Shown: piece after piece, positions 24,156 to 53,248 of the stretch
Layout of the letters: the number at the start of each line of letters is the position of its first letter
How positions within the stretch are numbered: the first letter of the stretch is position 1
Source of the DNA: a virus
DNA length: 64,000 nt
Strand: one strand, 5' to 3'
Virus record (IMG/VR): IMGVR_UViG_3300025015_000001
Notes under the pieces: model-generated
The model's database searches: none
Told to the model about the DNA's origin: nothing
Seen by the model: the letters and a program-made list of their open reading frames with translations, nothing else
Made by a program: the position numbers and the translations under genes

Positions 24156-24603
24156 ATTTTATTATATTCTCTAGTAAGTTTTATCATAGATTCTAATGAC
24201 AATTCAAGTTCATTATTAAGAGTCATATTATATACGTAACAGATTGCATCTTCATACGTATTGAATTTATTCCGGTTCTCATGAGTCTCTTTATCGTACC
24301 ATACTCTAAAGTACTGCTGGAAGCTGTTTGGGCATACGGTGCTTATTTCTACTTCTGGTAGATTAAAATATGGTCCCATTATTACGCCGCCTTTAATTTA
24401 TTATATTCCTTAGTAAGTTTTATCATAGATTCTAACGATAGTTCTAGGGCATTATTATACACCATATTATAGATGTAACAAATTGCATCTTCATACGTAT
24501 TAAACTGCCTGTACTGTGCAGATACGAGATACAACATATAGTTATTAGCTACTGTGTCCCACGCTAGCGTAAGTTCAGGCACTATAAATGCTTTCCACAT
24601 CAT
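24152..24603 (-). CDS. Two tandem paralogous small ORFs (24152-24379, 24382-24603), LSLE-tag family
   Basis: Both end FNTYEDAICY.YNM..NN.LELSLESMIKLT.EYNK and are near-identical at the DNA level. Confidence 0.75.
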
Positions 24604-25973
24604 AGCCTCAAATTAATAATTTCGCCTCTATGATTTTCTACTTCTATCATAGAAGTATTTATCATATCCTGAATTGTTAAATCTGTATTCTCCTGTATCT
24701 CAAACAACTCAGGTTTACTACCATCATAAATTTGCTTAGATTTTACTTGTACTATTTCTTTCGCAGGAAAAGAATAAGAACTTAGCATTCCCCCGAAAAC
24801 CGCGCCAGTGTCGATGTTGATTGCGTTCTTATACTTTTTGGGGGATACCCCGCATACCGCATGACCAAAGACTACAAACGGACCAGTATAGGACCTCGCC
24901 CAATCAATTCTTATTGGGTGACCATTATCATCTTCTCCTTGGGTAGGACCATACATACAATAATCTGATATGTCTCTATGATATTTTCCTATAAATTTTT
25001 TATTAAACGCACCATGAGTTACTACTATCTCTTCTCCATTAGTATGCTTAAAATGATAATAAGATTTTAAATTCTTATACATAAACTCTCTTAAAGATTC
25101 TTTAGCTTCTTCCGGAATTTGATCTATTGTTTTCTGTAGGCCGTCCGCTATCCTAACTTTTCTTCCTGATAGCCATCTCATAAGTTTATTATCATGATTG
25201 CTCATGACCCACCATCCGGTGTTATTTTCCATCATATGTCTAGCCAGTTCTAAACACCGCCAATTATCCGGGCCACGATCTGCAATGTCCCCAACAAATA
25301 CTATCTTACGCCCACTAGGGTGCCATATTTTTTGCCCACCTATTATGTACCCTAACTTACCGAGTAATTCATTAAGCTCTGAGAACGTTCCATGAACATC
25401 TCCTATTATGTCTATTCCGTGGTCTATATTAATTATATTATTTGTATCTAATAATTCTACAGTAATTTCATCTTCTGGGTTTACTATGAAAACATTATTT
25501 TGTTTTTCGAGGAAAGAATATGCAGACTTAAATCTTGTTGCGTGTTTTTTGACCACGCTTTCCCCTACTTTAGCAAACTCATCCCTAAGATTGTCTCTTT
25601 CAATACAAGTTTCTAGTGGAGTATTCATTACTATATAATATATAGGAACATGACTAGCCTTAGCTATTTCCTCTAGTTTGTGTCTAGACTCAGGGCTAAG
25701 ATTAGTAGCATTAGCTACTGTAAGTTGATTATGCTTTAACTTAGCTTCTATCATTGCGTGGAAAATAGTGAAAGCGCCATCGTTAAATTTTTGTAATTCT
25801 TGTTGTGTGAGATTATTATATTCTGTATGTAACATTATTCTACACTTATCTGATGATACTATTGCATTAATATTTCTTACAGATTTAAAATATTTATTAG
25901 CAAAGTAGTCTTTACCGCTACCAGAAATACCTACCATTGCTATTAAAGAATTATTTGGTATTTTTATTAGCAT
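24600..25973 (-). CDS. pnkp: Pnkp kinase-phosphatase (lacks ligase domain)
   Basis: P-loop GISGSGK, DATN-like NATN, and metallophosphatase GDVHG, GDIADRG, SNHD, HG, GH. Confidence 0.9.
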   Translation of the reverse strand: MLIKIPNNSLIAMVGISGSGKDYFANKYFKSVRNINAIVSSDKCRIMLHTEYNNLTQQELQKFNDGAFTIFHAMIEAKLKHNQLTVANATNLSPESRHKLEEIAKASHVPIYYIVMNTPLETCIERDNLRDEFAKVGESVVKKHATRFKSAYSFLEKQNNVFIVNPEDEITVELLDTNNIINIDHGIDIIGDVHGTFSELNELLGKLGYIIGGQKIWHPSGRKIVFVGDIADRGPDNWRCLELARHMMENNTGWWVMSNHDNKLMRWLSGRKVRIADGLQKTIDQIPEEAKESLREFMYKNLKSYYHFKHTNGEEIVVTHGAFNKKFIGKYHRDISDYCMYGPTQGEDDNGHPIRIDWARSYTGPFVVFGHAVCGVSPKKYKNAINIDTGAVFGGMLSSYSFPAKEIVQVKSKQIYDGSKPELFEIQENTDLTIQDMINTSMIEVENHRGEIINLRL

Positions 25974-35920: not shown

Positions 35921-37126
35921 ATGAAGATAAATAAAGCATACACATTTAGACTTTACCCTAACGACAACCAAAAGGATTTGCTTGCACAGCATTTTGGTGC
36001 GTGCAGATTCGTCTATAATTATTTCCTCCGTCAAAGAATAGACTACTACGCTGCAAATAAAGGTAATGCTAAAAAAGGATTAACATATTCTGATACATCG
36101 AAGATGTTAACCACACTCAAGAATCAACCTGAGTATGTGTGGTTGAAAGCTATTAATGCGCAATCATTACAGCAGTCACTACGTCATCTCGATGTTGCCT
36201 ATAATAATTTCTTTAATAATAAAACTAAATTTCCTAAGTTTAAAAACAAACACTCAAAACAATCTTTCCTTGCTCCTCAACATTTTTCTATTGATGTGCA
36301 GAGTAAGTTATTATATCTCCCGAAATTTAACTCCATACCTATTGTTATTCACAGGGATATAGATGGGGTAATGAAAAGCATTACCATATCTAAGTCCTCA
36401 TCAGGAAAGTACTTCGCATCTATATTATGTGAATTAGATATTGATGTCAAGCAAAAACAACAAGGAGATACTATAGGTATTGATTTAGGAATTAAATCAT
36501 TTATAGTTACATCTACTGGAGAAACAATAGATGCTCCTAAGTTCCTAAGAAAATCTGAACTTAAACTGAAACGGCTACAAAGATTACTCTCTCGTAAACA
36601 AAAAGGAAGTAATAGAAGAAACAAAGCAAAAATCAAAGTTGCATGTGTACACGATAAAATAACTAATCAAAGAAAAGATTTCCTACACAAGTTAAGTCAT
36701 AAATTAGTTAGCGAGAGCCAAGCTATATTTGTTGAAGACTTAAATGTGAAAGGTATGCTGGCAAACCATAAGTTGGCTAAGTCTATTGCCGATAGTGGTT
36801 GGTCAGAATTTATCCAGCAACTTAAATACAAATCAAATTGGAACGGAGTATATTTTGGTCAGGTTGATCGTTTCTTTCCTTCATCTAAAAGATGTAACAA
36901 CTGTGGTTGGATTAATACATCTCTTAGTTTAAAGGACAGAGAATGGACTTGTCGAGAATGTAATACTATAATTGATAGAGACAACAATGCAGCCAAGAAT
37001 ATACTCCAATTCGGATTATTACAGAGTACCGAGGGACACTCGGAAACTAAACGCCCAGGGAGACCACGTGCTGTCAGACGGGTCGTTGAACTAGGAAGCT
37101 ACTGGGCTTTAGCCCCAGTAGAGTAG
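35921..37126 (+). mobile_element. tnpB: IS200/IS605-family TnpB RNA-guided nuclease, no TnpA
   Basis: HTH_OrfB N-terminus; RuvC GIDLG, VEDL and DRDNNAAKNI intact; CxxC...CxxC zinc finger. Confidence 0.95.
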
Positions 37127-39222: not shown

Positions 39223-39386
39223 AAATTATCTTTTATATATTTTTTACTGTGTCTATAAAGCTATTCGGTTTTAAGCCGCAGGGTATTATCCGTAGGCCCC
39301 AAACCGAATAGCCTATCAGTAACTCTAAAGATATTACTAGTTATAGCGATACACTATATCCCCACTTAGGGTTGACACACAGTAAT

Positions 39387-44728: not shown

Positions 44729-46764
44729 TCATTTCTTCGCATTAAGTTCCATATCAAATTTTAACTCTACATATTTAGGCTTAAGTTCAGTAAGCAACCC
44801 AGCATCATTTTTAAAATATTTATCTATAGCTTTTCTTACATTCTCCGCACAGTTAAAATTAGTACACTTAACTATATAGTCTTTTATAGCATTTTTAATA
44901 TTTATGATATCAGTATCATTAGTCTTTAGATCAAGCAAAACAATTAATGTCATTTCCGAGAAGGGGCTCCTCTCCTTAGATAGATGACCACATAATATTT
45001 CTTTTTTTCTATTCATAGTATCGTCTGGAACTTTAATATCGAAATGCTTAATACATTGAACAATTTTATCTATATTATAAATATTTCTAGCAAATTTAAA
45101 TTTATCTATTACATACTTATACTCTATTTTATTTTTTATCTTATTAGTCTTCCTATCCAAGACTAAAGGAAAATCAAATATCATAGACCTATATGTGTAC
45201 TCCCAACCTTTATTACTTATAAAAGGGTATTCGCTTCTCCAATGAGACTTTACTATTTTTCTATCTGTTAAATATTTTCTTAATAACATTGCGGCATATG
45301 CCCCATTAAAAGTACCTTTTGGCCACGCCTTTTTGTTAGGATTAATTATAAACTTAGTTTTAGTAATCTTTGCTAGTAAATATTCACAATAATAATACTC
45401 ACCATTCTCTGTTTTATGCCGTCCCGATGCGGCAGTTTGGTGCTTAAAAAATGCAGTCATTACATCACTCATTCTTACTTTTTGCTTTGCCATTTTACCC
45501 CCAGCTTATTTTTAGCTTCTTCATTCGTTCCTAAGAAAAACTTAGTTTTAGGATTTCTAAAATTATATATTTTATGTCGTAATTTTGTTAACTGGAGGGT
45601 TGTCTCTAAATCTAGGTTCCATTTTGTTGGCAGCTTACTTATGGCATAGTTAAGTATTGCGGACAAGTCTGTTCCATAACACACATGTCTATCGGAACAT
45701 AGTGTAAAGCTATTACCCCCAACGCTCACCAAAGTTAACTTACCAATTTTTATACGCTTTGCTAGATAAGTGACCTCTTCCCACTCTCCTATAGCCTCTA
45801 TACAATTCATAGATTACCTCTAATTTATAATGACACATCTAATATGAGCAGTTACCTTTTTACTCCAGTCATAGACGTATCTAATGAATGCTTTAGCTAG
45901 TTTTTTATCACCGTTAAATTTAGCAGCCAGGTCATCATGTTTACACCAGTTACCCCCTAAACCAAGAAATGACGCAACTAATATTTTGTTATCACCAGTA
46001 ACAAAACTATCTATATGAATAGATATTTCTTTATAGTTCTTGTTAGTGGCCAACTCTAATGTTCGCGCTAATTTAAATGATGGTTCAGTTTCGCACAGAG
46101 GTAAACAGAGAGTATACATAACTCTGCATGGGATAGGATACGTATTTGGCTGGTAGTCTTTTTCCCTAGTTATCCATACATGCACACCATCAATAATATC
46201 TGGAAACAGATGAAACTCTGTTGGTAATGAATTAATCTTGGCTAGTAATGCTTGTTTAATAGCTTCTTCTTTTTCTGTCTTTATTCTTGCATTTTCCTTG
46301 TACTCTAATACTGCTGGTGATGCCGAGATACTATCGTAGTTCCAATAGTCATTATCTTTAAGTTTAATTATATCCCAATGCTTAAATTTACATATCTTTA
46401 TTAATTTTTCAACATCAGATAATTTTGTGAATCTCAAGTCGCCTCTGTCCATAGTATGATCTATATCTGTAAAATCACAAATCCTATATAAGAACCCATA
46501 TGCACCCTTTGCATCAAACATATTATTCTCCTATTTTTCACAATATTCTTTATGTAATTTTTGTAATTGTATTTCTATTTCTAAAGAAATATCCCATCTA
46601 TAACGGTTGTCATATGCAAATTGTATTGCATCTGCTAAAGTACTATAAGTGTTATGTTGTACACCATTAATCATAGGGTGGCCGACTATCATGTTAAATG
46701 CCGAATATGGTGTGCTGAGACTTTCTATAGCTAGTCCAGTAGTCATATCATATAAGTAAATCAT
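44729..46764 (-). CDS. Hypothetical ORFs downstream of RT (44729-45493, 45475-45810, 45820-46521, 46531-46764)
   Basis: Tightly packed ORFs; 45475 and 46531 carry the LSLE-like tag. Confidence 0.6.
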
Positions 46765-47663
46765 ATCTGCACCCTTAACTCACTGTCCATACGCTTAGTA
46801 AATAAGATACTTCTAACCACACTATAACTACTCCAAGTATCTTTCTTATTTTTTAATACCATATCTTGGAATGCCATCTTACCTTTAGTATCATTACGCA
46901 GTTCTTCTCCTCTTAAGTTCTGCTGATGGATCTCTGCTCTAAGATTCTTTCTATACTTACGTGGTATATTTAATTTTTCATTTACTACTATACCACATAC
47001 TAATTGTCTCTTAGATCTATGCATTATTTTGGTTTTCTTATGATTAACTTTTAACCCAATCCCAGTAAGTAATTTTTCAGCGTACTTCAAACTGTTAACT
47101 ACATCCTGCTTACTACTACCAGATACAACCAAATCATCTGCATATCTTGTGTAGTCACACTGATAAGTAAAACATTTCCATGCCATTTTCCAATCAATAC
47201 TATACATAATTATATTAGATATAAGAGGAGAAGTGGGGGCTCCTTGTGGTAACCTTTGGTATTTATTATCCTCGAAATCATTAAAACATGTATTCAAAAT
47301 ATTATAATTCTCATTAAATTCTTTTCTAGTCTTTTCGTTTCCTTCGTGGTATAATTTAAAGTTTTTATTTTTACTAAAACTATTGGTTTTGCAAGAAGAC
47401 ACCTCCATAAATATTCTATATTGTATTGACGGAAAGAAGTCCTCAATATCTATGCAACCCACCCATTTCTTCCCTACATGCGGTATTGCCATTGTAACTA
47501 TATTTTTATATGGCTGAAATGCGTGGGCAAATGGTGACACTTTAAATGTCTTTTGTAGTATAGGAATTAAAGCTTGCTGCTTAGCTTTTAGTATTGCATC
47601 TGGGGCTTCTATGATTCTCTCTCCGCCCTTCCTTTTAGGAATTCTGAAAATTGTATAAGACAT
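46761..47663 (-). CDS. Retron-type reverse transcriptase
   Basis: IPKRKGGERII.AP, AHAF...IVTMAIPH (region X, NAxxH variant), IDIEDFFPSI, LPQGAPTSP.ISN, YTRYADD, KKTKI and QLVCGIVVN (region Y, VTG variant). Start at ATG 47663 with GGAGG RBS. Confidence 0.93.
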   Translation of the reverse strand: MSYTIFRIPKRKGGERIIEAPDAILKAKQQALIPILQKTFKVSPFAHAFQPYKNIVTMAIPHVGKKWVGCIDIEDFFPSIQYRIFMEVSSCKTNSFSKNKNFKLYHEGNEKTRKEFNENYNILNTCFNDFEDNKYQRLPQGAPTSPLISNIIMYSIDWKMAWKCFTYQCDYTRYADDLVVSGSSKQDVVNSLKYAEKLLTGIGLKVNHKKTKIMHRSKRQLVCGIVVNEKLNIPRKYRKNLRAEIHQQNLRGEELRNDTKGKMAFQDMVLKNKKDTWSSYSVVRSILFTKRMDSELRVQI

Positions 47664-47664
47664 T

Positions 47665-47895
47665 TTAGCCCTCCTTACTACTGACATCTATTATGTTAAT
47701 TGCATCCCGAGCTATACGTAACAATTTCAATTCATGTTCTCTACTATATATTTTATCTAGTATAACTCTTTTACATTGTCTAATATTGTCTTCATCCATC
47801 CAATCCACATCAGCGCACTTATTTCTTTTAAGATGCCAGCTATGTTTCCACTCATCTATATCTATTGCATGGAGTACATCATCATGTATTTTCAT
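47665..47895 (-). CDS. 76-aa hypothetical protein between the ncRNA array and RT
   Basis: GGAGG RBS; its stop is coupled to the RT start. Confidence 0.7.
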   Translation of the reverse strand: MKIHDDVLHAIDIDEWKHSWHLKRNKCADVDWMDEDNIRQCKRVILDKIYSREHELKLLRIARDAINIIDVSSKEG

Positions 47896-47916: not shown

Positions 47917-48017
47917 ATACTATGCTTACCTAATGTGGTAGATGTTAACTACTAATTTTACTAATACTTATCGAATCAATAAGTAGTGCTATAATTAAAG
48001 CACACGTACCATAGCAT
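47917..48017 (-). ncRNA. Retron-like msr-msd unit 6
   Basis: a1 AUGCUAUG / a2 CAUAGUAU (one G.U), G-U after a1, SL GUGCU/AGCAC, SL UACUUAU-UGAUUCG-AUAAGUA and a short msd hairpin (TACC/GGTA). Confidence 0.6.
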
Positions 48018-48071
48018 TTTATATCTGTCCTGCGCCGAGAACGACTCCGATCGTGTTGTTATCTTTTAATT

Positions 48072-48168
48072 TATTTTCGAGTAGATGAAACATCTACCTC
48101 CAGCACCTTTATAACCATTCTATACTTTTATAGAATTGGCAAGGTTTATTGCATAGACGAGCAAAATA
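48072..48168 (-). ncRNA. Retron-like msr-msd unit 5 (degenerate)
   Basis: UAUUUUGCUC-GUCUAUG start homologous to unit 2, two stem-loops and msd hairpin GTAGATG-AAA-CATCTAC. a1/a2 pair only partially and the UGNUNCG loop is absent. Confidence 0.5.
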
Positions 48169-48175
48169 CTTGTTA

Positions 48176-48278
48176 ATTGAGCCAAAGAAATCCAGGCGTG
48201 TCGCCTGGATAAATTGTAGTAAATTTTTACATAATATAGCGAACCACTATAGTTGTCACTCAGACAGAGACGCTCAAT
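48176..48278 (-). ncRNA. Retron-like msr-msd unit 4
   Basis: a1 AUUGAGC / a2 GCUCAAU, GUCU, SL UGUC/GACA, SL UAUAG-UGGUUCG-CUAUA and msd ATCCAGGCG-TGT-CGCCTGGAT. Confidence 0.75.
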
Positions 48279-48313
48279 AATTATTTAATTTGGTATCCCT
48301 TTTCCCAGCTAAT

Positions 48314-48439
48314 TTAGTCTGGGTTTAGAACTTCTAAGTCAAATCCTAGTCTTATTAGTATCTGTTCTAGATACCATTGCTTATGGTGTCCATCATCTGT
48401 GCACAGACCAGCTATTACAATGCCCTTAATAGTCTCCAT
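48314..48439 (-). CDS. 41-aa small protein inside the ncRNA array
   Basis: GGAGGG RBS; METIKGIVIAGLCTDDGHHKQWYLEQILIRLGFDLEVLNPD. Absent from the ORF track. Confidence 0.7.
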   Translation of the reverse strand: METIKGIVIAGLCTDDGHHKQWYLEQILIRLGFDLEVLNPD

Positions 48440-48461
48440 ATTTTCCCTCCATTTATTTTCT

Positions 48462-48603
48462 AGTTATGCCTATTGACTAATTTTAATGATTCGTAAGCGA
48501 AGCTTTTTGCGGTAGTATCGCAAAACATTAAAATTGTATGTGTTTTCACAAAACTTTTTTGTGTAAAGATAGCGCAGCACTATCCAATTTGAGACGCATA
48601 ACT
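48462..48603 (-). ncRNA. Retron-like msr-msd unit 3
   Basis: a1 AGUUAUGC / a2 GCAUAACU, GUCU, SL GAUAG-UGCUGCG-CUAUC, and msd AATTTTAATG...TTTTGCG-GTAGTAT-CGCAAAA-CATTAAAATT. Confidence 0.75.
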
Positions 48604-48613
48604 TACTATTATT

Positions 48614-48761
48614 TTATTGCACCCACTTTTGATCCTAAGCTTTTAACGAAACGTAGTGTAGTTAAAAGAAGCGGATCAAACAATTAGTAGTATTAAAAGT
48701 ACTTCTCTAATCAGACGAAGCATCTGACCTGTCAATTTTATTGACCATAGACGTGCAATAA
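48614..48761 (-). ncRNA. Retron-like msr-msd unit 2
   Basis: a1 UUAUUGCAC / a2 GUGCAAUAA, GUCU, SL GUCAA/UUGAC, SL UCAGA-UGCUUCG-UCUGA, and msd TTTGATCC...TTTTAAC...GTTAAAA...GGATCAAA. Confidence 0.8.
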
Positions 48762-48806
48762 TATTTCTTACGAAATAAGCAATACAATTAATTAATTTAT
48801 AATTTC

Positions 48807-48998
48807 TAAAACATCATGACTAAAGAATTTGATCTAATTATTATTATAAGTATCTGAATGTGACAAATTGGAAGTTGTAATTTTTCACAAGAAGATCTTA
48901 TAATAATAATTAGGTTAATATGTTTGTAGTAATTAAATCTTTGCACTTGTTGGCGAAGCACCAACTGCAATTGTTATTGCGAGACTCATGACAGTTTA
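48807..48998 (-). ncRNA. Retron-like msr-msd unit 1
   Basis: Closing stem core UCAUGA/UCAUGA (48986-48991 with 48814-48819), GUCU, SL GCAAU/AUUGC, SL GUUGG-UGCUUCG-CCAAC, and an 80-nt msd hairpin with a 17-bp perfect base (48834-48850/48897-48913). Confidence 0.75.
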
Positions 48999-49620: not shown

Positions 49621-50913
49621 TCAATCTTCATACATAACCTTCTGCCCGAATGGTATTTCAATATTAGGAGTCTTAGTCAGCCACATGACAGGATACTCCG
49701 GGGCGTCTTCTGGGAATGTTCCGAATAGATCTGTAAAATAAATAAGCGCATCTATTTTAATATCATGCTCTGAGAAGAACATCCCGACTGGTCGGAAATC
49801 CGTTCCTCCCCCTCCCTTAGCTAACCCCTTAAAATCTATCTCATCCCCAGGCAGTACTTCCTGATAGTGGTGCACCGCAGCATCACAAGCTATAAGATGT
49901 AATCTATATGAGGAGAATGAATTACATATAGCATTTACTTCTGAGAATGCTTCTCTTAATTCTTTTTCTCCCATTGAGCCGGAGGTATCAACAGCGAAGC
50001 CTACATTGATAGCCTCACTGTATAATGCTGGACTGAACACCCCTCTATTTAAATTTCTCTTATTAAGTTTTCTCCAACTATAATCATCCTTGGTTTTAGT
50101 TAAAAGAAATTCTGCTAACATCTGCCGCCAATTAATTTTGCTTTCTAATAAATCTCCAACCATTCTTTCTATACCAGCGGGAAGTTTACCCTGACGTTGT
50201 GCACTCTGGGCTGCTTGTGCTACCCATATTTTCCAATCACCATCTAAGCTTCCATCAGATTCATCCTTACCTCCGCCCTCCCCTTGCCCATTCTCTTTGG
50301 TCTTGCCCCTACCCCCACCTTTTCCTTCTTTATCTTTTCCCCATTTAGAATGGTCGTCTGCTATTTTACCTAGTACATTTCCGTCTTGGTCTGTAACATT
50401 ACCATCAGCATCTACGCTACAGAACTTAACCTTATCGCTCTTCATTAAATCATCATAGATATTTTCTGTAGTCCAGTTACCATCTGAATATTTCTTATCA
50501 TAATAATATTTACCAGCCGCTATCTTAGACGGCCTAAAAGTTCCATTCTGCCCTATTTGTGTACAACACATATCAACAACAAAATGATTAACTGTAAACT
50601 CACAGGCTATTCTCCATACTGGTTCTATCTTATGCCTCGACCTTTCTACTCCTCTTTTTCCTGTATGACCCATGAGATTGTGCCCAACTTCGTGAGCAAT
50701 TATTTCTTCTAACAAATCATCATCAATTTTCTCTTCTTGTATTTTTTCTGCATTAAAATATAACGATCTACCATCTGTTGCCATTACTGCTGGTAATGTC
50801 TTGTCTTCCTTTGTAACTAACCTACAGGCCAGCTCCCCAAGGAATGGGTGCCTTAGAAGAAAATTAAACTTGCACTTTCCTATTCTATCCTTTACTGATA
50901 ACTCATTTGCCAT
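49621..50913 (-). CDS. DUF2201-type metallopeptidase plus VWA domain protein
   Basis: ATDG, HEVGH (HExxH), DDHSKW, VDTSGSM and GGGGTDF. Confidence 0.9.
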   Translation of the reverse strand: MANELSVKDRIGKCKFNFLLRHPFLGELACRLVTKEDKTLPAVMATDGRSLYFNAEKIQEEKIDDDLLEEIIAHEVGHNLMGHTGKRGVERSRHKIEPVWRIACEFTVNHFVVDMCCTQIGQNGTFRPSKIAAGKYYYDKKYSDGNWTTENIYDDLMKSDKVKFCSVDADGNVTDQDGNVLGKIADDHSKWGKDKEGKGGGRGKTKENGQGEGGGKDESDGSLDGDWKIWVAQAAQSAQRQGKLPAGIERMVGDLLESKINWRQMLAEFLLTKTKDDYSWRKLNKRNLNRGVFSPALYSEAINVGFAVDTSGSMGEKELREAFSEVNAICNSFSSYRLHLIACDAAVHHYQEVLPGDEIDFKGLAKGGGGTDFRPVGMFFSEHDIKIDALIYFTDLFGTFPEDAPEYPVMWLTKTPNIEIPFGQKVMYED

Positions 50914-50925
50914 GATTGTTCTCCT

Positions 50926-52093
50926 TTATTTTAGAAATTCTAAATCTTTTTTAAACCTACTAAGCATTAGCGCATCTTCAAACGTAAGGTAGGGCCACTT
51001 CAATAATCCAAGGATGACAGATTTTAAATTTTGTTTGTGCATAGGAAATTCTGTATCTAGCTCAACTGAGCAGCGATATCTATGCAATCTCTTACCTGTA
51101 CATTTTGCATCGAATGTAAAATTTTCACCTATTATTAAATAATTATAGTAGTGTAAATTCCTACAAAGTTCTCTTGGGCAGTACCTACAATTCTTCCATT
51201 TCTTAATATAGGTTTTCATTCTGCACTCTCAGGTTTTAGATTTTCTAAATAATTATTTATAAACTCACCTATGCTTTTTCCTTCTATAGATGCTCTATAT
51301 TCTATATCAAATATTTGCCACTTGCCAAGCGAAATATCAAATACATTGCTATGAAATATTACATAGCCCCATTTACACCCATCGTCCCCAGTAAACTCTA
51401 CCGTAGTAGAAGTATTAGGCAGCATTACAGACGACACGAATTGTGCTAGTTCTTTTTCTTCATAATGCTTAGCATAGTACTCTCCCCCGTCAGGATACAT
51501 AGCAAAGCTATCACCATCTTGTCGTACTTCATAATAACTATTTATAGGAGATGAGTTTATTTTATTTTGTAATTCTTCTAAGGAGTATCTACTTTTAAAC
51601 ACTATATCATTTTCCATCGTCGAACAGTATCCCATGCCTACCCTCCCACTCTATATTACTCCTAGTTTAGTTGCTAATAATGTCTGCTCGAATGACAGTG
51701 GAGAAAGACAATCGGACGGGTACTCTTTCAGCATTCCCACAGACTTTCCAGCCATGCATATTATTTCTACGTCATAGCACCCGTCAGCATAGCTATATAG
51801 AATTCTATTAAAATTAAAACCACCTGTATCTTTATTAAATGCTACTATATCTCCTACTTTAAATTTATTCATATTAATCCTAGTTTAGTTAATAGTATTG
51901 TTTGTTCTATGCTTGGTATGATAGCAGGCCTGTGGGTATAATTTAAAGTAGTTTCTAAATAAAATGATTTACGTGGGCCTGACAATGGAATACACTCTAC
52001 TATATACCATTCAGGTTTACATTCTAGTATTTTATATAACCTATCAGGATTTTTACTTGTGGATACTATATCCCCCACTTTAAATTTACGCAT
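50926..52093 (-). CDS. Four small ORFs (50926, 51216, 51651, 51869)
   Basis: 51651 and 51869 are KFKVGD paralogues; three of the four carry the tag. Confidence 0.6.
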
Positions 52094-52118
52094 TGTAATC
52101 CTTTACTTTTAGATTTTC

Positions 52119-52161
52119 TAAAATTAAAATAGCCCCTATAGTAATCGAACCTACAGGAGCT
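52119..52161 (-). terminator. Intrinsic terminator after the MoxR gene
   Basis: 11-bp stem AGCUCCUGUAG/CUAUAGGGGCU with two G.U pairs on the minus strand, followed by AUUUUAAUUUU. Confidence 0.7.
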
Positions 52162-52177
52162 AAGTACTTGAAATTAC

Positions 52178-53248
52178 TCAGAAATAGCGCGGGGCAATTT
52201 TCTCATTCCAATATTTGGATTTGATAATATTTTCCCTATATTTTGCCGTATTATAGGCATACAGGTCTTTCACAAGCAACCCACCATATTCTGCATCCAT
52301 ACCAAGGCTATACTCTAGTATTCTGTCCATTGCCTTTTGTACACCCATCTTATCTGCCTTTTCGACAAATCTTGATATCAGCATGCTGCACAACGCGAAC
52401 AATACAGATGGTTCTTTAGGAACTTTGTTATCACCAGCGTATATTTTATCTATATCAGGAAGTTCTCTAAACCATTTCTTATACGCAATTATTTCACTAG
52501 CAATACCAGTTCCAGCATAGCCAGCTATCTCATGCATAACAAGCTCGTCTGACATCCCATTAGCATTTGCGTCCACCAACGCCTCAGATATCATTTCCCA
52601 TGTTCTTGCTGTAACAAAATCCTTATAGGCATGACTCTTGTTTCTCTTATCGAATGTATTAAATTTTGATTCTTTAAATTCATTTAGGTAGCTCATAACA
52701 AGAGGATGAAACTCTCTTGCTAATGCAAAGTCTTCTTTCCAATCTTGGAATGGGAGCATGACATTAAGCATCATTACTCTATCCTTCATAGCTTCAGAGT
52801 CTGACGTAGCCCCACTTCCATCTGTAAGCAAGTTACCTGTAGCTATCGGGATAACATTATCAGGAAGCCTGTGCTCTCCAACCCTCCTATCATCTGGGTG
52901 AAAAACCGGCTGTAGTGCTACCTTAGTGGAAGGCATAGCACTACCTAGCTCATCAATAAGAATTATCATACCATCTTTTCCTTCTAAGTCTGCTGATGTA
53001 GGGAGGAGAGGAGATACAGAAAAGAATGAGCGCTGCGTCTTTGTGTCATACCCCATTACCCCACGGACATCTGTGGGGTCTAATGACGACCCCTCAAATA
53101 TTTTTATCCCATAATTCATTTCTTTAGCTACCTGTTTTACTATTGCAGACTTTCCTATACCTGGGCTACCCTTCAAGTATACAGACCTCTTCCTACGAAT
53201 ACATGCCTTCACTATCTCTCTTGCTTGTCTTAGTGTAATTGATTCCAT
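52178..53248 (-). CDS. MoxR-like AAA+ ATPase
   Basis: GSPGIGKS, LDPTDVRG, LIDEL and ATGN. Confidence 0.9.
   Translation of the reverse strand: MESITLRQAREIVKACIRRKRSVYLKGSPGIGKSAIVKQVAKEMNYGIKIFEGSSLDPTDVRGVMGYDTKTQRSFFSVSPLLPTSADLEGKDGMIILIDELGSAMPSTKVALQPVFHPDDRRVGEHRLPDNVIPIATGNLLTDGSGATSDSEAMKDRVMMLNVMLPFQDWKEDFALAREFHPLVMSYLNEFKESKFNTFDKRNKSHAYKDFVTARTWEMISEALVDANANGMSDELVMHEIAGYAGTGIASEIIAYKKWFRELPDIDKIYAGDNKVPKEPSVLFALCSMLISRFVEKADKMGVQKAMDRILEYSLGMDAEYGGLLVKDLYAYNTAKYRENIIKSKYWNEKIAPRYF

Follow-up and report, generated by a model that had tools for sequence, protein, structure and literature searches.

Reverse transcriptases (RTs) of phages that act on arrays of non-coding RNA (ncRNA) have been described for the UG27 systems. 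Mestre et al. (2022, PMC9226505) described the UG27 RT from gut phages, where it lies next to a structured intergenic region. This region is a variable array of units of ~150 nucleotides (nt), whose central hairpins are copied to complementary DNAs (cDNAs) of 50-100 nt (bioRxiv 10.64898/2026.09.22.753630). Both accessory proteins are required and the cDNA hairpins have no complementarity to the phage genome; furthermore, the units of some clades are missed by the covariance model, and UG27 RTs match a retron-type CDD domain (bioRxiv 10.64898/2026.09.22.753630). The canonical UG27 RT has a length of 380-450 amino acids (aa), carries the motif YSDD and belongs to the class 2 UG/Abi RTs. Its tree was rooted with DRT2 and its units are ~135-167 nt long. 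Here, a stretch of 64,000 nt from the IMG/VR virus record IMGVR_UViG_3300025015_000001 was analyzed (the window), in which the region 47917-48993 upstream of an RT gene is probably a natural array of retron-type msr-msd units serving this phage-encoded, retron-type RT. The UG27 ncRNA arrays are the closest described system.

Characterized retrons comprise one ncRNA per RT together with an effector and serve in host defence. For Retron-Ec86, it was described that methylation of CCTGG in the stem of the msDNA by a phage Dcm triggers the effector (bioRxiv 10.1101/2023.08.16.553469). Tandem msr-msd units with a shared RT, each giving its own reverse-transcribed DNA (RT-DNA), are a feature of the engineered multitrons (bioRxiv 10.1101/2023.07.17.549397). 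The locus in the window resembles retrons in the clade and the motifs of its RT, in its a1/a2 repeats with a candidate branching G after a1, in the msr-like hairpins preceding a long msd-like hairpin and in the position of the ncRNA beside the RT on the same strand. In contrast to characterized retrons, it has 6+1 units and no conserved effector. With the multitrons it shares the predicted tandem msr-msd units and the single RT. The multitrons are synthetic constructs in which one scaffold is repeated and editing donors are carried, whereas the locus described here is natural, with an a1/a2 pair of its own for each unit. No report of natural retron arrays was found in the literature searched.

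Architecture of the Array

The array consists of six units (A-F) on the RNA (minus) strand upstream of the RT gene, and a seventh unit (G) lies dispersed in an intergenic gap ~7.4 kb downstream of it (Table 1). Given the position of unit G, the RT would be able to act in trans. The units are 101-182 nt long; a stem forms their base, and their central hairpin is variable. Their elements follow in a fixed order, namely a first repeat (a1), the bases G-U(C/U)U, a small hairpin, a hairpin with a UGNNUCG loop, a spacer, the central hairpin, a linker ending with (A)G and a second repeat (a2), which is paired with a1. The a1/a2 stems have a length of 7-9 base pairs (bp) in units A-D, F and G. In the branched central domain of unit C, the arms TTTTGCG/CGCAAAA are accompanied by AGCGAAGCT, and in unit B a GATC is found at the base of the central stem.

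A first-pass annotation of the window had described five hairpins as parts of predicted cDNAs and proposed that they form a library of decoys. All five were found on the plus strand where it had placed them. Folded as single-stranded DNA, they reach z-scores between -4.0 and -7.7, and none of 200 dinucleotide shuffles folded as well. The CCWGG duplex ATCCAGGCG/CGCCTGGAT of unit D and the GATC duplex TTTGATCC/GGATCAAA of unit B are perfect Watson-Crick stems. The assumed strand relation was also right, with the RNA on the minus strand and the predicted cDNA with the sequence of the plus strand. The inventory was incomplete, as units F and G had been missed.

Scripted searches with shuffled controls were used in place of a covariance model; the central parts differ too much in length and sequence for an alignment with MAFFT. 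Four units were recovered by a search for a1-G-UCU and a matching a2. For a broader comparison, 44 scaffold hairpins of the window and of related loci served as anchors. At 64% of these anchors, a1 and a2 pair over at least 8 bp and GU follows a1, compared to 11% with shuffled flanks; for stems of at least 9 bp with GU, the values were 32% and 2.6%, respectively. A set of 34 curated units was compiled from the window and from the related loci L002, L004, L005, L253, L254, L086, L089 and L092. All of them have a G after a1, which is a condition built into the search. The base immediately 5′ of a2, which was not a search condition, is a G in 31 of the 34 units. When the search was left unconstrained, a1 was followed by G at 18 of 41 anchors and by GU at 14 of 41, and AG preceded a2 at 13 of 41.

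No match to Rfam at gathering thresholds was found in the window, a blastn search of the locus against phage records gave no match, and a comparison of the payloads, i.e. the variable central regions, with the rest of the phage genome yielded no meaningful matches. A complementarity of 10 bp between 48089-48098 and 47937-47946 has no counterpart in L002, and we took it as chance.

Table 1. Units of the array, reverse transcriptase and neighboring genes in the window
Feature	Coordinates	Strand	Description
Unit A	48812-48993	-	a1 UGUCAUGA; G-UCU; two scaffold hairpins; 80-nt central hairpin (48834-48913); a2 UCAUGAUG
Unit B	48614-48761	-	a1 UUAUUGCAC; G-UCU; two scaffold hairpins (second loop UGCUUCG); central hairpin (48628-48680); a2 GUGCAAUAA
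Unit C	48462-48603	-	a1 AGUUAUGC; G-UCU; scaffold loop UGCUGCG; branched central domain (48479-48535); a2 GCAUAACU
Unit D	48176-48278	-	a1 AUUGAGC; G-UCU; scaffold loop UGGUUCG; 9-bp central hairpin (48190-48210) with CCWGG duplex; a2 GCUCAAU
Unit E	48030-48166	-	degenerate; weak a1/a2; 5-bp central hairpin with CGATCG; scaffold hairpin (48080-48098)
Unit F	47917-48017	-	a1 AUGCUAUG; G-UAC; hairpin; scaffold loop UGAUUCG; short central region; a2 CAUAGUAU
Unit G	39244-39385	-	a1 UUACUGUGU; G-UCA; small hairpin; loop UGUAUCG; 12-bp central stem; UAUAG; a2 ACACAGUAA
Retron-type RT	46761-47663	-	300 aa from ATG behind ribosome-binding site AAGGAGG
76-aa ORF	47665-47895	-	between array and RT; no family
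41-aa ORF	48314-48439	-	own ribosome-binding site; splits array between units C and D
Upstream neighbors	49621-53248	-	
DUF2201 gene	49621-50913	-	metallopeptidase/VWA-like
MoxR-like gene	52178-53248	-	AAA ATPase

The Reverse Transcriptase Groups With Retron RTs

The open frame of the RT reaches up to position 47687, which would correspond to 308 aa. The protein carries the catalytic motif YADD; VCG replaces the retron motif VTG and MAIPH replaces NAxxH, and both variants are kept across the RT clade, the called gene products of which have a length of 248-301 aa. The Pfam domain RVT_1 was matched with 8e-26. The best 25 of 79 PADLOC matches are all retron RT models (1e-64 to 1e-40). Retron RTs also occupy the first 12 places among the PDB matches (1e-19 to 4e-28), led by Ec86 (4e-28), compared to 2e-4 for Drt2. 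Judged by its sequence, the RT is a member of the retron RT clade. It was assigned to no named retron type, since it stays under the curated cut-off of every NCBIfam retron model (186 vs. 235 bits). Scans of metagenomes and genomes with the RT alignment were uninformative on arrays; among the matches listed, only generic retron RTs with at most 40% identity were found.

These data bear on the question whether the locus could be a divergent member of the UG27 system, in which a class 2 UG/Abi RT is combined with an sORF, a bORF and an ncRNA array. Both have the same general layout, namely tandem units of 100-180 nt on a phage genome that agree in structure but vary in sequence, each built from a basal stem and a central hairpin that varies, with gain and loss of units, some of them dispersed, and small open reading frames (ORFs) beside the RT. 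The UG27 clades whose units escape the published model, and the match of UG27 RTs to a retron-type domain, would fit such an assignment as well. However, the RT of the window has 300 aa and YADD instead of 380-450 aa and YSDD, and it scores 186 bits with the NCBIfam model retron_St85 but 57 bits with Drt2, the outgroup of the UG27 tree. The unit motifs differ, too, and are a1-G-U(C/U)U, the UGNNUCG loop and (A)G-a2. In UG27 units, the motifs AUC-N7-UANAG and UUYA bracket the central stem; on the minus strand of 47917-48993, the former is without an exact match. A conserved pair of the sORF/bORF kind was not found among the small ORFs flanking the RT, as judged by their homologues in the related loci, and these ORFs are kept in close relatives only. 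A pseudoknot was not found either, although no search was aimed at one. A bona fide UG27 locus for a direct comparison was not obtained with a motif regex over 165 loci, among the YSDD RTs of the fetched loci or in three faecal-phage records; the comparison is with the published features of UG27. We consider membership in UG27 unlikely.

Units of the Same Type Accompany Related RTs

RTs with 46-83% identity were found on contigs from Logan, ENA, NCBI and IMG/VR. Units of the same type occur beside the RTs of these relatives, always on the RT strand, in AT-rich as well as GC-rich phages and in numbers ranging from single units to at least seven. L002 has six units. Of the two GC-rich loci, L253 has six and L254 has five. 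At least seven units were counted in L089, at least two in L005 and two or three in L086, and one unit each is present in L004, L088 and L092. They accompany the RT clade in every related locus with enough flanking DNA, either upstream or downstream of the RT, so that the unit architecture is a property of the RT clade and not of this phage alone. A further locus, L251, is the identical phage and contributes no variation. Scans of viral contigs with DNA words of the scaffold gave no matches or matches at chance level only.

Scaffolds Are Conserved and Payloads Change

The closest comparison is provided by L002, whose RT has 83% protein identity and whose array aligns with that of the window unit by unit. 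For units A-D, the 5′ scaffolds are 78-94% identical, whereas the central regions share 50-74%, with the lowest value in unit D. For comparison, the identity at 4-fold degenerate sites is 53% in three flanking genes. These values indicate a strong constraint on the scaffold and a moderate one on the centers of units A-C, and the payload of unit D either drifted neutrally or was replaced. The earlier description of different payloads on a common, conserved scaffold therefore agrees with the comparison of close relatives, in which the payloads change and the scaffold stays steady.

When the structure derived from the window was laid onto the alignment of these two sequences, 91% of the cells were able to pair and 23 pairs were changed on both sides. 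Slid controls gave two to seven such changes, and none of 500 shuffles reached 23. Six compensatory changes are located in the lower stem of unit A. The stem of unit D shows AT-rich replacements in L002 and L004, with five compensatory pairs. In unit F, two compensatory changes and one change from G-U to G-C were found in a1/a2 and two further compensatory changes in the scaffold hairpin. Some segments of the payloads are kept. These are the apex AAATTGG..AATTT of unit A (in L002 and L005), the stem base TTTGATC and the top CTTTTAAC of unit B (in L002, with a variable middle part), and the AGCUUCGCU element of unit C (in L002). Selection thus appears to keep the scaffold, the hairpin shape of the payload and a few apical or basal segments, but not the sequence of the stems, since 23 base pairs were exchanged in a compensatory manner.

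Restriction- and Methylation-Type Sites in the Payloads

The first-pass annotation had read the short motifs in the payloads as binding sites. According to this proposal, the hairpin DNAs would be sequence-specific decoys for EcoRII/Dcm, MboI/Dam, transcription factors or DNA sensors. Of the five features listed, two are part of the RNA scaffold. GTAGATG/CATCTAC (48081-48097) is the scaffold hairpin of unit E and not a payload; it corresponds to the RNA GGUAGA-UGUUUCA-UCUACU and is kept in L002. With its loop UGUUUCA, it is a hairpin of the UGNNUCG type found in the other units. GCGAAGC, which had been taken as a DNA mini-hairpin, complements the motif (U)GCUUCG(C) in the loops of the RNA. A second copy is found in the scaffold of unit A, where the second loop UGCUUCG reads GCGAAGC on the plus strand (48953-48959). 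The copy in unit C is best explained as a copy of the RNA motif, since it complements a loop motif found throughout the family. The TGTGA/TCACA of unit A is replaced by ATGTTA/TAACAT in L002 and is therefore not conserved. In the same unit, an AGATCT lies opposite GATAC across a bulge, so that no true GATC duplex is formed. Neither L002 nor L004 keeps the CCWGG stem of unit D.

For the quantitative analysis, the predicted cDNAs of the 34 curated units were folded with DNA parameters, resulting in 104 Watson-Crick helices and 656 bp of payload stem. Palindromes occur in these stems at chance, with 33 palindromes of 4 bp (31.1 expected) and six of 6 bp (4.9 expected). GATC was counted three times (0.87 expected, P=0.05), with one orthologous pair among these. 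CCWGG is present in three of the 34 payloads (unit D of the window, L005 and L089) compared to an expectation of 0.51, with a post hoc P of 0.014, which becomes 0.03-0.08 for independent units. At the level of the arrays neither site is enriched (GATC 16 vs. 12.0 expected; CCWGG 9 vs. 8.2), and in none of the seven array-type lineages do the 6-bp palindromes of the whole arrays exceed expectation. No 8-mers or 9-mers beyond chance are common to the payloads of different lineages. An excess of 5-bp quasi-palindromes (40 vs. 22) was rejected, as it consists of AAATT/TTAAA/ATAAT runs; the words containing G or C are at 12 vs. 9.4 (P=0.15).

GATC is the most avoided 4-bp palindrome of the phage genome (observed/expected 0.52), and none of the Pfam DNA methyltransferases PF00145, PF02086 and PF01555 is encoded. 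Both points would fit a decoy, as would the perfect CCWGG and GATC duplexes in units D and B. However, the 6-bp palindromes of the array are not those avoided by the phage (pooled observed/expected 0.98, compared to 0.88 genome-wide).

GGCGCC, CTCGAG and GTCGAC are nearly absent from the phage genome (observed/expected 0.12-0.19). The CGATCG in the central hairpin of unit E (48048-48053) is the sole copy in the 194-kb genome, where 3.1 would be expected.

The picture is different in a sister lineage. L088 encodes an RT of 248 aa with 46% identity and has a single unit of the same scaffold type upstream of it (L088:3633-4012). Its template of ~330 nt holds 14 G/C-containing 6-bp palindromes, compared to 5.7 expected (P<0.002), and in the flanks of 8.4 kb these words are rarer than expected (14 vs. 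26.7). In the unit L087:3790-3945 of the same sister lineage (RT 46-47% identical), six such palindromes were found (1.5 expected), and the flanks are without depletion. The templates of L087 and L088 resemble a "natural polylinker" or bait, whereas the array of the window does not. Their palindromes count in favor of sequence-specific decoys and lend some plausibility to a generic role of the hairpin DNAs as ligands for proteins of the host or of rival phages, and to the general idea that the products of these RTs engage defences that cut DNA.

For the window, the CCWGG, GATC, TGTGA and GCGAAGC "sites" are probably incidental or part of the RNA scaffold. The site-based argument fails because palindromes and sites occur at chance in homologous payloads and are not conserved, which is essentially the outcome that the first-pass annotation itself had named as speaking against its proposal. 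Its observation is partly confirmed and its interpretation partly supported, as the distinction of scaffold and payload holds and the site-based decoys do not. We regard such decoys as quite unlikely.

Possible RNA-Level Functions or Methylation Sensing

The units might also act as RNA alone, for example as a leader, as processing or termination signals or as RNA decoys, without reverse transcription. The conserved parts are the UGNNUCG loops, which are features of the RNA, and the array is located in the 5′ leader of an operon of the 76-aa ORF and the RT. Furthermore, the hairpin of unit D fits the pattern of an intrinsic terminator (minus strand, 48210-48190). Its U-rich tail is the linker to a2, however, and this hairpin with tail is present neither in L002 nor in L004. 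The units also track the RT clade and the RT strand, whether they are found upstream or downstream of the RT and in one case 7.4 kb away, and the a1/a2 stem followed by G corresponds to the priming geometry of retrons. A function of the RNA alone is therefore very unlikely.

That the locus is a phage-borne defence retron directed against other phages, with CCWGG or GATC in the msDNA stem as a methylation sensor, could be argued from the functional CCWGG of Retron-Ec86 and from the retron-type RT, but is extremely improbable, since no conserved effector gene accompanies the RT, the sites are neither conserved nor enriched, and we know of no characterized retron with seven units of different stems.

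Proposed Mechanism

If the locus is an array of retron-type units, the a1/a2 stem would close each unit, and the G directly after a1 would be the branch or priming nucleotide. The hairpin with the UGNNUCG loop is a candidate for the recognition site of the RT. As suggested by retrons and by the UG27 experiments, the RT would bind each unit and copy its central hairpin. In infected cells, the output would be a set of small single-stranded hairpin DNAs of at least five kinds.

For the function of these molecules, our guess is that the hairpin DNAs or their complexes with the RT are structure-dependent ligands or competitors for proteins of the host or of rival phages that act on structured or single-stranded DNA. 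The predicted role would then be anti-defence, presumably not that of a library of sites for restriction enzymes or transcription factors. In a more general form, large phages might combine a retron-type RT with a multiplexed array, so that hairpin DNAs disarm DNA-sensing defences. The payloads would be free to turn over, and that of the sister lineage would serve as palindrome bait. We put this forward as a tentative and rather doubtful proposal.

Several points weigh against the assignment as an array of retron-type units or against its interpretation. Units E and F have weak central hairpins, and the a1/a2 stem of unit E is poor. Since the structure came from the window sequence and the comparison covered no more than two sequences, the counts of compensatory changes lean to this structure. 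Across the related loci, the RT is not accompanied by a conserved effector or partner protein, so that no function can be read from the neighbors. Finally, a minor site-specific component is possible because of the CCWGG in three of 34 payloads and the avoidance of GATC.

Genomic Setting of the Locus

The window is part of a complete phage genome of 194,269 bp with direct terminal repeats, which encodes baseplate and tail-fibre genes. The genes around the array are located on the minus strand. Apart from the 41-aa gene, there is no long ORF within the 1.1 kb of the array. This gene is missing from L002, and a homologue with 54% identity is found upstream of the array of L005 (1162-1284).

The ORFs of 76, 77 and 233 aa near the RT belong to no family and are not kept beyond close relatives. 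For the 76-aa ORF, no relative was detected in any related locus by tblastn (E<=1e-3); ORFs of 74 and 76 aa are located at its position in L002 and L003, respectively. Homologues of the 77-aa ORF are present in near relatives, and a homologue of the 233-aa ORF was found only in L002.

The sole conserved syntenic neighbor is the DUF2201 gene. In nine of 14 related loci, with RT identities as low as 36%, homologues are located upstream of the RT or the array; among these loci are L253, L254, L086, L089, L092, L093 and L090. A MoxR-like AAA ATPase gene upstream of the DUF2201 gene was found here and in L254. This association may reflect the synteny of a phage lineage or a functional link.

Two further genes of the window were observed. 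A protein of 457 aa (24600-25973, minus strand) has matches to polynucleotide kinase/phosphatase and RNA-ligase PHROGs, like phage tRNA-repair enzymes, and could possibly counter anticodon nucleases. A transposase of 401 aa (phrog_506, 2e-134) is encoded at 35921-37126 on the plus strand, opposite to the minus-strand phage genes around it.

Implications for Phage-Encoded Reverse Transcriptases

If the units are copied as proposed, the locus would be a natural counterpart of the engineered multitron, in which one RT serves several templates, each with its own a1/a2 address. It would then offer ready-made orthogonal scaffolds for the multiplexed production of RT-DNA. If the proposed anti-defence role is true, the hairpin DNAs would be a counter-defence made of nucleic acid by an RT and distinct from protein DNA mimics. 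For the analysis of such payloads, it follows from the comparisons above that short "sites" need to be judged against the composition of the stems before they are read as binding sites.

The idea of ncRNA arrays, as described for UG27, would be extended to the retron branch of RTs. The locus is also an example of retron-type RTs without effectors in large phages. The role of hairpin DNAs made by phages would thereby become testable in a second, independent RT lineage.

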